Part shown: positions 21,137 through 26,637 of the stretch, one piece after another
Layout of the letters: each line of letters starts with the position of its first letter
Numbering within the stretch: position 1 is the first letter of the stretch
Source: Aggregatilineales bacterium
GTDB taxonomy: Bacteria > Chloroflexota > Anaerolineae > Aggregatilineales > J027
DNA length: 64,000 nucleotides
NCBI GenBank assembly: GCA_965215855.1
Contig: CBDCER010000003.1
Span: 3,467,201-3,531,200 of the forward strand
Direction: 5' to 3'
The notes under the pieces: generated by a model
Seen by the model: the letters and a program-made list of their open reading frames with translations, nothing else
Database searches by the model: none
What the model was told of the DNA's origin: nothing
Program-made: the position numbers and the translations under genes

Positions 21137-21925
21137 TCACGCGTGCTGTATATATTCAAAGCGTAAATAGTGATCAGCAATCTTTATGATGTCGCCACTT
21201 CTTAAGAAATATGCCTCGGATTCACCCAGAAGTGCCTCATTAACCTGTATACCCGTGCTGGAATGGCAAATGAGGCAATGGCCTTGATCTGTCCACTCAA
21301 TAGAAAAATGGACGCGATTAATTTCGGTACCCAATAACACAATATCATTAGAATACTTGCGTCCGCCCAGCAATCTTGGCTTGTCGAGTGGTATTATCCG
21401 CAACTGCTGGCCTCGGTGAGCCATGACTAACCAATACATGACATCAGGATGGGTTTGCATGGAGTTTTTGAGCAGAGATGCTACCAAAACATCATCAATG
21501 ATGGCTTGGGCAGCATCTTGCTCAGTAACATCCGGACTTTGATGAACCTCGGCTAGAAGATCGCTAAACACACCATCGACCATTTTGCCCAGATTTCGCC
21601 AGAATTGTTTCGCATCTGATTCAAGTGCTTGATCTTGCCGGGGCGTGGAGTAGGGGCTTTTGTAGGTTTGAAAGCGTTGCCAGAGATTCTTGAAACTGGA
21701 TGTGACGCTGTCGAGTATGTCTTCAAAATCAATGCGGAGTGTCTGGGATAAGAACTCGTGGGCATCCTCGTAGCTGACCATATAAGGCAGTATGGCGTCG
21801 GGATGGACCAGGGTTTCGGTCTCGGTGGGCAATTTATAGACGGGTACGTCACCAGGAAGTAATTCGACGTCGTCGGGGACGATGAAGAAGTATTCGCGGG
21901 TTTCGTCTGTGAAAAGTGTGGGCAT
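21137..21925 (-). CDS. FHA domain-containing protein
   Basis: 262 aa. The C-terminal FHA pattern is GRKYSNDIVLLGTEINRVHFSIEW...GIQVNEALL....LRSGDIIKIADHYLRFEY. The N-terminal ~170 aa are unassigned. It starts 21 nt downstream of the WD40 gene. Confidence 0.75.
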   Translation of the reverse strand: MPTLFTDETREYFFIVPDDVELLPGDVPVYKLPTETETLVHPDAILPYMVSYEDAHEFLSQTLRIDFEDILDSVTSSFKNLWQRFQTYKSPYSTPRQDQALESDAKQFWRNLGKMVDGVFSDLLAEVHQSPDVTEQDAAQAIIDDVLVASLLKNSMQTHPDVMYWLVMAHRGQQLRIIPLDKPRLLGGRKYSNDIVLLGTEINRVHFSIEWTDQGHCLICHSSTGIQVNEALLGESEAYFLRSGDIIKIADHYLRFEYIQHA

Positions 21926-21946
21926 GATAGAATTTGACCCTATTTA

Positions 21947-25800: not shown

Positions 25801-26637
25801 GTCCTCGTCGGGGGGGCGTTTGTTGCGTATAACTTGCCGAATACGCGCACACAGCTCTTCTATTTCGAGGCTAGGTTCAGGTTGGCTGCCTAATTCTTGA
25901 ATTAGCTCTTGTTCGGCACGGGCATCGATTTCTTCATCAGGTTCGGTAACCGCGTCACGTGCCTCCGTCACATGTTCGGCGGAGGGGGGCAGTTCCTCCT
26001 GTTCCGAGGCGGTAACTGCGGCCCGTTCCTGAACTTGCCCCATACGCTGTTGACTCTCGGAGGAAGGTGTTTCGGGAGGAGGGGGCATTTTTATTGCAAC
26101 ATCGCTGCTGGATGCTGCGCTGCTGGCTTCTGAGGATGCTTGTTCTGGTTGCGCCTCTCCTCGTGATTTCCCAGATGACACTGGAGCCGTTGATGTAGGA
26201 CCGTTCGTACCTGTCTTTTTGGCCGACTTCGGCTTCGTCGCTACAGACTTGGGTTGTTTGGGCGCTGTCTTTGCTGACGAGGTTTCACTTTTTCCGCTGG
26301 TATCTTTAGTTGCAGTAGGTGGAGTCTTTTTAGGAGTGGGTTGAGCAGTTGGTGCTTGTTGATTAGTTGCAGTTGGCGATGTGGAGTCTTTCTTTTTGGC
26401 CTCTTCGCGTTGAATTATTTGCTGGGTTGCTCGATTACCAAGATGCCTTTGTAACTTCAACACATCTTGAGGTCGCATGGGTCTTGGACGGCGTTGTCGA
26501 AGCGCCGCCAAACTTAATCTATGTATATCAACTGTTGTTTCGTGTTCGGTTTGGTGTGTCTGCGATGTTTGGTCTTTGTCTCCAACTGCTTTGTCAACCG
26601 ATTGATGTTCAGACACCAACCACTTTCCTCTGCCCAC
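22852..26637 (-). CDS. large polymorphic-toxin-like protein with C-terminal HNH/EndoVII-fold nuclease domain
   Basis: 1261-aa ORF. The GTG start at 26637 is uncertain; TTG at 26619 or GTG at 26616 follow a GAGGAAAG SD-like run. It has an N-terminal LKLQRHLGNRATQQIIQ motif, a P/T/K-rich tract, an E-rich acidic tract and a long helical region. The C-terminus is HYEVDHDTPVAFHW...NLQLLTQHFNRGKGSEHGG (HNH pattern DH..P / N.Q.L / N..KG). Confidence 0.8.
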   Translation of the reverse strand: MGRGKWLVSEHQSVDKAVGDKDQTSQTHQTEHETTVDIHRLSLAALRQRRPRPMRPQDVLKLQRHLGNRATQQIIQREEAKKKDSTSPTATNQQAPTAQPTPKKTPPTATKDTSGKSETSSAKTAPKQPKSVATKPKSAKKTGTNGPTSTAPVSSGKSRGEAQPEQASSEASSAASSSDVAIKMPPPPETPSSESQQRMGQVQERAAVTASEQEELPPSAEHVTEARDAVTEPDEEIDARAEQELIQELGSQPEPSLEIEELCARIRQVIRNKRPPDEDSLVNADPEAMAQAAGQELNQSLEGKAEDVEESYEEMEEEQEGEATREPEPTEELPPAEQTQNINAQEAKPDPIPDEDTSLDEDVEANQQKIEEAGMTSEPAALVESGPIAEAREAQEDLEQTAEEDVAVARAKQQEALVKADTDMAALQAQALQSLQESRAQTVTNVGGQQNEMVGSEEQMRQQVGQQANTIYSNAQSSVDDLMKEVPEKAREKWDAGIGDLSQKFKDDLRVVEEKIEERHSGVLGDVVEWWDSTFGLPGWATEAYDNAERNFGDGVCNLLREISTEVNGIVASAHAIIEKAREDINTLYDQLPANLQEWATQERAKFDEKLNGLSQSVNETRDNFNQELINLASNAVQEVRQEVHGLREKAKGLVGKIADAITTFLEDPAKFIINGLLELVGIVPAAFWAVVNRIKSAIDSIAEDPVGFANNLMEALKQGFQMFFNNIGTHLLDGLIKWLFARMDSVGIEIPSDFSLKSIITFFLQIMGISWAKIRQLIAKHVGEENVALIEQAWEVISTFIAEGPAGIFEWIKDKINPKDILDTILQTAIDFVIETLIKQVTMRIIGMLNPAGAIVQAIEAIYKVLNWLFENAAKIFSLIETIVGGIQDIIAGNIGGMAAAIEKTLAGVLPVVIDFLADLLGLGGLPDKVADAVKGVQGMVESVLDEAIGWLVDKAKGLLKSMGLGGEEEDTEGPNTGDEDKDQKIGVALTSIRTKEPEHRDEDSITRDEAQQIASQVSNEQQDIESIQIVDGGTTWDYNLSFVQRTTIKSTQATDENTVKQPKLVDVPDRRELPDNYDVRYNLYTGRGSGWSNVRTQFRDSEFERIEREFILELVDSVQQGDIDQAENIISELEMEQLINPGISAHQVATWYQDGGMQGIHKHMHYEVDHDTPVAFHWVDEGYKSSDQERWQHAIDITNLQLLTQHFNRGKGSEHGGEQYHYGDQDFVTPEFTSKYVSEDRLSIDDRGTMKRFKNVEDL

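Follow-up and report, generated by a model that had tools for sequence, protein, structure and literature searches.

The closest described relatives of the locus reported here are the polymorphic toxins of the Photorhabdus virulence cassette secretion systems (PVC-SS) and extracellular contractile injection systems (eCIS), also termed eCIS-associated toxins ('EATs'), which bear the PVC-metallopeptidase domain (DUF4157, eCIS_core) and in which a constant N-terminal part carries a highly variable C-terminal toxin domain (PMC3482391; PMC8213781; PMC11297309). Many of the PVC toxins are encoded without an immunity gene (Zhang et al., PMC3482391). Cgo1 and Cgo2, cargo proteins of AlgoCIS, carry a DUF4157 domain and, before the functional part, a disordered N-terminal region (PMC8894135; bioRxiv 10.64898/2026.05.27.728243), and this disordered N-terminus is a loading signal handled by an AAA+ ATPase, with DUF4157 being dispensable for loading (bioRxiv 10.64898/2026.05.27.728243). 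Long helical, tape-measure-like effectors without DUF4157 are represented by Sle1/Sle2 of Streptomyces lividans, RS14790/RS14785 of Micromonospora and Tme of S. davawensis (bioRxiv 10.1101/2025.11.06.686954; PMC11126660). A small DUF4157 protein in contact with the spike binds an effector of the Sle type, one nuclease C-terminus of Sle1-type effectors has a downstream immunity gene, and toxin-immunity logic for the cargo of contractile injection systems (CIS) has already been reported (bioRxiv 10.1101/2025.11.06.686954). Here, we describe three adjacent genes in a stretch of 64,000 nucleotides (nt), referred to as the window, from contig CBDCER010000003.1 of an Aggregatilineales bacterium (Chloroflexota; assembly GCA_965215855.1), which encode a giant toxin, a WD40 protein and a small protein with a forkhead-associated (FHA) domain. 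They are probably an 'orphan' effector module of the CIS of the same genome, comprising a cargo toxin, its WD40 immunity protein and a helper from a protein family named here X.

The three open reading frames (ORFs) follow one another in the same direction on the minus strand, with gaps of 11 nt and 21 nt, as a sequence-only reading of the window, made without database searches, had stated; its assignment of a WD40 and an FHA gene likewise agrees with the Pfam matches (PF00400 and PF00498). Gene 1 starts with GTG and encodes 1261 amino acids (aa), while the database copy begins seven codons later (1254 aa). A promoter and terminator scan, which operated at chance level, gave no terminator-like site on the minus strand between the three genes, and co-transcription can reasonably be inferred, as it fits both the layout and the scan. 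The features of the locus, in window coordinates, are as follows.

22852..26637, minus strand: gene 1, predicted CIS-cargo-type polymorphic toxin of 1261 aa, with at least 256 homologues at E≤1e-3, at 50-60% identity over aa ~190-970
26404..26463, minus strand: leader motif VLKLQRHLGNRATQQIIQRE of gene 1 (aa 59-78), also found in the DUF4157 protein of the CIS locus (LKMQRTHGNQAVRRML) and in relatives
26068..26403, minus strand: low-complexity region rich in S, T, K, A and P (aa 79-190), by composition count
23734..26067, minus strand: conserved scaffold core (aa 191-968), with 47-60% identity to relatives from many phyla
23491..23733, minus strand: junction or pre-toxin adaptor (aa 969-1049, '...VDGGTTWDYNLSFVQR'), common to toxins with other tips
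22855..23490, minus strand: variable toxin tip (aa 1050-1261) of a putative HNH/His-Me-type nuclease family, with 73 relatives found by HMMER
22996..23136, minus strand: predicted catalytic core of the tip, YEVDH (1168-1172)...NLQLLTQHFNRGKG (1201-1214), corresponding to columns D111, H112, N141 and N150 of tip alignment A1
21947..22840, minus strand: gene 2, WD40/beta-propeller protein of 297 aa, cognate immunity candidate by Pfam and by synteny with the tip
21137..21925, minus strand: gene 3, X-FHA protein of 262 aa, scaffold-linked accessory protein with a C-terminal FHA domain, whose N-terminal domain recurs downstream of scaffold relatives
21656..21925, minus strand: N-terminal domain of X (aa 1-90, 'LFTDETREYFFIVPDDVELLPGD...'), with profile matches in 11 other loci
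21179..21364, minus strand: non-canonical FHA domain of gene 3 (aa 188-249), PF00498

Hundreds of the homologues of gene 1 have E-values from 0 to 1e-255, and many of them are annotated as DUF4157 or eCIS core domain-containing proteins. The similarity (E = 0 for such DUF4157 proteins with variable tips) covers about 800 aa, from aa ~190 to ~970, and the C-termini beyond it match Ntox15, AHH, Endonuclea_NS_2, WHH, colicin DNase and deaminases. Variable C-termini on a constant part are the architecture described for PVC/eCIS polymorphic toxins (PMC3482391) and eCIS-associated toxins (PMC11297309), and gene 1, judged by this homology, is a new member of that class; the trio had been taken beforehand for a system without a name, which for the toxin no longer holds. 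Its homologues carry eCIS_core, adjoin CIS AAA+ ATPase or tape-measure genes, several of the close ones directly following the ATPase gene, and the genome itself has a CIS. In contrast to the described PVC-SS/eCIS toxins, the window toxin has no DUF4157 and is encoded 1.36 Mb from the CIS operon, and it is accompanied by an adjacent candidate immunity gene and a conserved third gene, the latter being absent from the descriptions in those papers.

At its N-terminus, the toxin has an 'LQRxxGN' leader followed by the stretch rich in S, T, K, A and P, which aligns only loosely to relatives and is similar to the disordered region by which AlgoCIS cargo is loaded. As far as the published descriptions allow a comparison, the Cgo proteins share this arrangement of a disordered region before the functional part; they differ in carrying DUF4157, and neither an immunity gene nor an X-like partner has been described for them. 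The scaffold core contains a coiled-coil-like part, with a weak and generic Pfam match of the Apolipoprotein type, and two hydrophobic helices at the hydropathy peaks aa 669-695 and 896-928. According to the pairwise alignments the constant part ends at about aa 968, and the adjoining adaptor, up to about aa 1047, is shared with some relatives that bear other tips, namely the toxins of P0007, G051 and L057. Again compared by description, the Sle1/Tme systems have in common with this genome the long helical effector without DUF4157, the small DUF4157 protein in the CIS locus and the exchangeable C-termini. However, their effectors adjoin the sheath gene, and no WD40 immunity gene or X-type gene is reported for them (bioRxiv 10.1101/2025.11.06.686954; PMC11126660).

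Gene 3 is tied to the scaffold by its N-terminal domain. As a whole protein it had no word-sharing relative among 5.8 billion proteins, where only the window's own copy was returned. Searches of related genomes uncovered a motif of ~90 residues at its N-terminus, 'LYTDxxxxxFFLVPDD..LPxGD..Y', and a hidden Markov model (HMM) of this domain matched 11 other loci with E-values of 1e-20 to 1e-37, including loci of close scaffold relatives. Among 12 hand-picked close-scaffold loci with enough flanking sequence, X was verified in nine and is probable in one more; in the P0006 loci the third gene, of 199 aa, is only a probable X. The order of genes is toxin (Ntox15), Tdi1-like immunity gene, X; toxin (AHH), Imm11, X; toxin, SUFU, X; toxin, SUKH-like gene, X; toxin, an unknown protein of 196 aa or 221 aa, X; or toxin and X without an immunity gene. 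Several of these loci come straight after a CIS AAA+ ATPase gene, and in G217 X is flanked by a CIS spike-tip gene on one side and the gene of a 1446-aa 'LQxxYGN' effector on the other. Elsewhere X is rare, and across the phylum two of 401 sampled genomes contain it. A typical member has 170-240 aa, its small beta domain giving way to helices that end in 'LRxHGIxVS...LPDxL'. The structure model of gene 3 is confident only in the N-terminal domain, where the first ~60 residues form four strands and a helix (predicted local distance difference test, pLDDT, 80-92). Ten members gave nothing consistent in Pfam or PHROGs, and neither sequence searches nor Foldseek with the model returned a PDB match. 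A match of one member to a lambda tail-assembly chaperone (E 0.067) was too weak and was rejected as evidence.

These data suggest that gene 3 is defined by its N-terminal domain, which represents an unannotated family that accompanies the scaffold regardless of which tip or immunity gene is present; such a conserved third gene linked to the scaffold is new. X is most likely a helper, i.e. a chaperone or adaptor that stabilises the effector or loads it onto the CIS, an assignment drawn from synteny. A parallel is provided by the adaptors and chaperones of type VI secretion systems (T6SS; Eag/DUF1795, DUF4123 and DUF2169, in works cited by PMC11297309), which are likewise small effector-linked genes that follow the carrier and not the tip and for which a stabilising or loading role has been proposed, although no sequence or fold similarity between them and X was found.

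The FHA domain of gene 3 is well recognisable (42.5 bits against a cut-off of 20.7) and raises a different possibility, in which it would be the core of the gene and act as a phosphothreonine switch, tying toxin deployment to a Ser/Thr kinase as Fha1/TagH do together with PpkA/PppA in the T6SS. Such a link had been put forward from the sequence alone, and the T6SS indeed offers the precedent of an FHA protein encoded alongside a component of a contractile weapon. Thr and Ser abound in the toxin leader, FHA, VWA-FHA and PP2C genes adjoin related toxins, and CIS baseplate genes of this genome are fused to FHA. In the congener G004 (G004:C268, L050:1154-5367, minus strand), moreover, a 395-aa X-FHA gene is the third after those of a 594-aa Ser/Thr kinase and a 400-aa Pfam-less protein. 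However, FHA is present in only two of the 13 members of family X, the window protein and this congener homologue, and is missing from the other 11. The window domain keeps G, R and H of the canonical motifs, but has Asn in place of the Ser of SRxH (INRVH) and Thr in place of the Asn of NG (STG), so that the Ser and Asn that contact phosphothreonine are absent; the congener protein deviates alike, the two having Asn or Ala for the Ser and Thr for the Asn, whereas the FHA domains fused to the CIS baseplate proteins retain the canonical residues. With the TagH model (TIGR03354) gene 3 scores 28.9 bits, far below the cut-off of 120.25, the machine of the genome is of the eCIS type (Pvc16_N cap and WHD-AAA ATPase), and no kinase or phosphatase gene lies near the operon within the window. 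A phosphothreonine switch at the heart of gene 3 is thus unlikely. The FHA domain is rather, on the present sequences, a genus-level addition to X, whose degenerate form may add a regulatory or docking contact. Of the earlier proposal that the third gene belongs to the system, the N-terminal domain has held, as it recurs beside toxin relatives, and the FHA domain has not; the same division results for synteny across genomes, where WD40 accompanies the tip and the N-terminal domain of X accompanies the scaffold, with FHA accompanying neither.

The proposed machine is a complete eCIS-type locus at C3:~2.113-2.132 Mb, 1.36 Mb from the toxin (C3:3.490 Mb), in a genome of 4.9 Mb on three contigs with a single copy of the scaffold. 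It encodes a WHD-AAA ATPase, a small DUF4157 protein, a Pvc16_N cap, the sheath, a gp19 tube protein, a 1109-aa Pfam-less protein, a tube-LysM protein, a VgrG-like spike, gp25, Baseplate_J, an FHA-Tail_P2_I fusion and an FHA-TSP3 protein. The small DUF4157 protein (eCIS_core, 259 aa; L006:3099-3878) carries the leader motif of the toxin, with LKLQRHLGNRATQQ in the toxin corresponding to LKMQRTHGNQAVRR in the CIS-locus protein, and the motif occurs in only four ORFs of the genome. A small DUF4157 protein bearing the toxin leader within the CIS locus matches both the Sle1/Sle2 picture and the finding of a loading signal in AlgoCIS. This shared leader also bears on the possibility that the toxin leaves the cell without the CIS, by lysis or by some secretion path of another kind, or that it is an abortive or programmed-death effector curbed by the WD40 protein. 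The distance of the operon from the CIS locus and the absence of DUF4157 from the toxin are compatible with such a role, and some Streptomyces CIS act intracellularly (PMC11126660). Against it stand, besides the leader, the full CIS encoded in the genome and the close scaffold relatives that immediately follow CIS ATPase genes, which make a toxin independent of the CIS quite improbable.

In the congener G005 the NHL-repeat gene and the resistance-nodulation-division (RND) permease gene are ~330 bp apart (C1:197717-198046), and they are similarly close in G001. In the window the region ~19123-27038 places an insertion sequence (IS) and the trio (~7.9 kb) between these two genes, a block that DNA comparison showed to be absent there in five congeners. 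Because the empty site is kept in the congeners, the trio is, as judged from these genomes, a lineage-specific insertion and a recent acquisition of the lineage. An integrase to the left of the trio was considered as part of the inserted block and rejected, as the integrase/NHL region is partly conserved in the congeners and only the IS and the trio are extra. A cyanobacterial origin was rejected, no PsbA being present. The IS adds one feature to the list.

19608..21049, plus strand: IS element with a DDE_5 transposase (Pfam), abutting the 3' end of the operon and belonging to the inserted block, not to the system

The toxin tip of ~210 aa and gene 2 form the exchangeable part of the module. 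With residues 1046-1261 as the query, HMMER found 73 relatives among 1.84 billion representatives, nearly all of them C-termini of proteins of 500-1800 aa, several of which carry eCIS_core; a word-index search returned the window's own protein alone. In an alignment of 23 tips D1171, H1172 and N1210 are invariant and N1201 is nearly so, which also holds for 22 tips taken from genomic loci, and the family keeps an N-terminal motif, RxLPxxYDVRxxLYxxGSGW. Compared with curated models at E≤0.1, seven of the 23 relatives match GmrSD_C and five match HNH_4, one of them (P0124) above the Pfam cut-off (26.7 bits against 23). An AlphaFold2 model built from the 22 genomic tips (pLDDT 89, predicted TM-score 0.80) places a strand (109-113), a second strand (143-147) and a helix (148-154) around the motif. 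PDB sequence searches with the tip were uninformative, its profile matching only the Cas9 HNH domain, weakly (E 0.19), and the weak Foldseek list (all E≥~1) includes SaCas9, Vvn/EndoI and PtuB. Owing to the motif, the model matches of the relatives and the predicted strand-strand-helix arrangement, the tip is read as a divergent HNH/His-Me nuclease, which is probable, not proven. The DH...N...N motif and the predicted strand-strand-helix core resemble those of the His-Me finger nucleases GmrSD_C (DUF1524, PF07510) and HNH_4, with which the relatives score, whereas the window tip itself falls below detection and, compared with solved structures, has a helical N-terminal half of ~100 aa and an insertion between the two strands without counterpart.

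Gene 2 matches PF00400 and many propeller models in Pfam but no Pfam immunity model, and no signal peptide is seen when the sequence is judged by eye. Its relation to the tip was followed with a degenerate DNA pattern for VDHxxPLAxHW in 185,579 species genomes, which gave 34 loci; in 22 of these a true tip forms the end of a large ORF that belongs to the same scaffold superfamily, and as the exact-motif pattern samples only VDHxxPLAxHW tips, the 22 loci are a biased sample. A WD40 homologue of 298-326 aa is the next ORF in 12 of them, at -4 to +21 nt from the toxin stop (phmmer E 2e-45 to 4e-5), and with a profile of the WD40 family two weaker propellers are recovered at this position, giving 14 of 22 with the weak matches included. 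The 12 genomes belong to at least six phyla (Myxococcota, Actinomycetota, a cyanobacterium, a metagenome-assembled Ardenticatenaceae genome of the Chloroflexota, Larkinella of the Bacteroidota, Leptospirales and Peptococcaceae). Nine of the syntenic proteins align with gene 2 from end to end (57-149 bits), compared with at most 35 bits, in partial alignments, for the best of the genome's 45 other WD40 ORFs. No clear homologue of gene 3 was found in any of the 22 tip loci.

The GC content at third codon positions (GC3) follows the same boundaries: it is 0.546 in the scaffold, drops to 0.284 in the junction, 0.321 in the tip and 0.315 in the WD40 gene, and in the initial part of gene 3 is back at 0.541. 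As the drop extends across junction, tip and WD40 gene, tip and WD40 gene are a single exchanged AT-rich cassette, as expected of a toxin-immunity pair. The layout suggested at the outset, with a WD40 protein in the immunity position, is thus upheld by the homologues following the same tip and by the shared composition, and gene 2, on this comparative evidence, is very probably the cognate immunity protein of the tip. What is new is that an HNH-type tip family has a WD40 propeller family as its probable immunity partner; the immunity families of Zhang et al. 2012 contain no WD40 protein (PMC3482391, with 0 occurrences of 'WD40'). That absence, together with the nature of WD40 propellers as generic interaction platforms, could also favour a co-factor of the tip, one that activates it, serves as its target-recognition subunit or is loaded along with the toxin as an adaptor. 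However, gene 2 bears the signature of an immunity gene in its position, its tight spacing, the foreign composition that it shares with the tip and its strict co-occurrence with one family of tips, and a cytoplasmic DNase requires an inhibitor in its producer, which leaves a co-factor role very improbable. The least probable of the explanations considered makes X a second or orphan immunity protein or an antitoxin-like operon regulator and not a delivery helper, for although it sits downstream of the immunity gene, the usual place of orphan immunity genes, it follows unrelated tips (HNH, Ntox15, AHH, deaminase-like and unknown) and even toxins without an immunity gene, resembles the scaffold and not the cassette in composition, and in G217 precedes the effector beside the spike-tip gene.

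Several observations weigh against an effector module of the CIS. The window toxin has no Pfam match to DUF4157/eCIS_core (PF13699, HExxH), which is present in many of its homologues, although the literature treats this domain as optional (PMC11297309; bioRxiv 10.64898/2026.05.27.728243). It is not encoded within ~10 genes of the CIS operon, as are 88% of known eCIS toxins (PMC11297309), whereas its relatives do adjoin CIS genes. Three of the 12 close-scaffold loci lack X, as do nearly all loci with a distant scaffold, and X shows no detectable likeness to any known chaperone or adaptor in Pfam, PHROGs, the PDB or Foldseek, and in G004 stands beside a Ser/Thr kinase gene with no toxin scaffold nearby. 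No WD40 gene is found downstream in eight of the 22 tip loci, some of which have too short a flank. The HNH assignment of the tip, made at first from the window alone, has no Pfam or NCBIfam call in the window's own protein, with nothing at E≤0.1, and Foldseek with the tip model gave no solved structure below E=1 (best ~1); what speaks for it comes from the residues kept in the relatives, their GmrSD_C/HNH_4 matches and the model.

In the proposed mechanism the leader, composed of LQRxxGN and the presumably disordered stretch rich in S, T, K and P, would direct the loading of the toxin, and would be followed by the helical scaffold and the junction at which recombination exchanges the tips. 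The WD40 propeller, which would have travelled with the tip as one AT-rich cassette, would be made together with the toxin, stay in the cytoplasm and bind the tip so as to occlude the DH/N site in the producer. X would bind the constant part and either keep the toxin competent for loading or escort it to a loading complex formed by the AAA+ ATPase, the small DUF4157 protein and the spike, and after injection the HNH tip would degrade the DNA of the target. As a speculation, the degenerate FHA domain might hold X to a partner that is phosphorylated or merely acidic, and, given the FHA-fused baseplate proteins, the FHA of X may link loading to kinase signalling. A bolder form of this idea, which we consider doubtful, sees in X a new class of helper for tape-measure-like CIS cargo, like the tail-assembly chaperones of phages, that would bind the scaffold or leader and hand the toxin to the spike and ATPase, with the FHA of X and of the baseplate placing loading or firing under Ser/Thr phosphorylation. 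To our knowledge, control of a contractile weapon by Ser/Thr phosphorylation has so far been known only for the T6SS.

Some further observations concern the machine and the surroundings of the trio. Two genes at the baseplate end of the CIS locus (G000:C3:~2113388-2116190; L005:7389-10190, minus strand), the FHA-Tail_P2_I (gp7/Afp12-like) fusion and the FHA-TSP3-repeat protein, carry an N-terminal canonical FHA domain, and CIS or toxin genes have FHA and VWA-FHA genes as neighbours in the G217, L066 and P0006 contigs as well; we found no paper linking FHA to eCIS. An unusual CIS neighbourhood is present in G217:C237 (L056:761-8551), where a gene resembling those of T4SS coupling proteins (T4SS-DNA_transf) and VWA-FHA, FHA and Peptidase_C39-like genes lie upstream of the block of ATPase, spike tip, X and effector. 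The leader 'LQRxxGNxAV' occurs ~45-60 residues from the N-terminus of two more ORFs (frames of 580 and 523 aa; G000:C2:139734-141473, plus strand, and G000:C3:2722011-2723579, minus strand), which are candidates for additional CIS cargo far from the machine. The DDE_5 IS is found at 19608-21049, 57879-59340 and 61309-62772 of the window and in more than 25 further places in the genome, and since a dozen or more copies are 100% identical, this indicates a recent transposition burst. Elsewhere in the window, 47096-47974 (plus strand) encodes a bacterial protein with RRM_1 and a PHAX RNA-binding domain, a pairing more familiar from eukaryotes, and 26993-31903 (plus strand) encodes an AcrB-type RND permease of 1636 aa instead of the usual ~1040, only parts of which match ACR_tran.

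eCIS particles are being engineered for protein delivery, and the recognition and loading of large native cargo is still unclear. X, which follows one large cargo family whatever its tip, is a concrete and directly testable candidate for a loading or chaperone factor. The WD40 propeller, as a candidate, adds a new fold to the immunity proteins of nucleases, and gene 2 and the tip represent a matched candidate toxin-antidote pair for an HNH-type tip with an architecture that lacks a solved relative. The case also suggests that cargo modules of CIS can arrive as stand-alone islands far from the machine, a point of relevance to genome mining guided by closeness to the operon.

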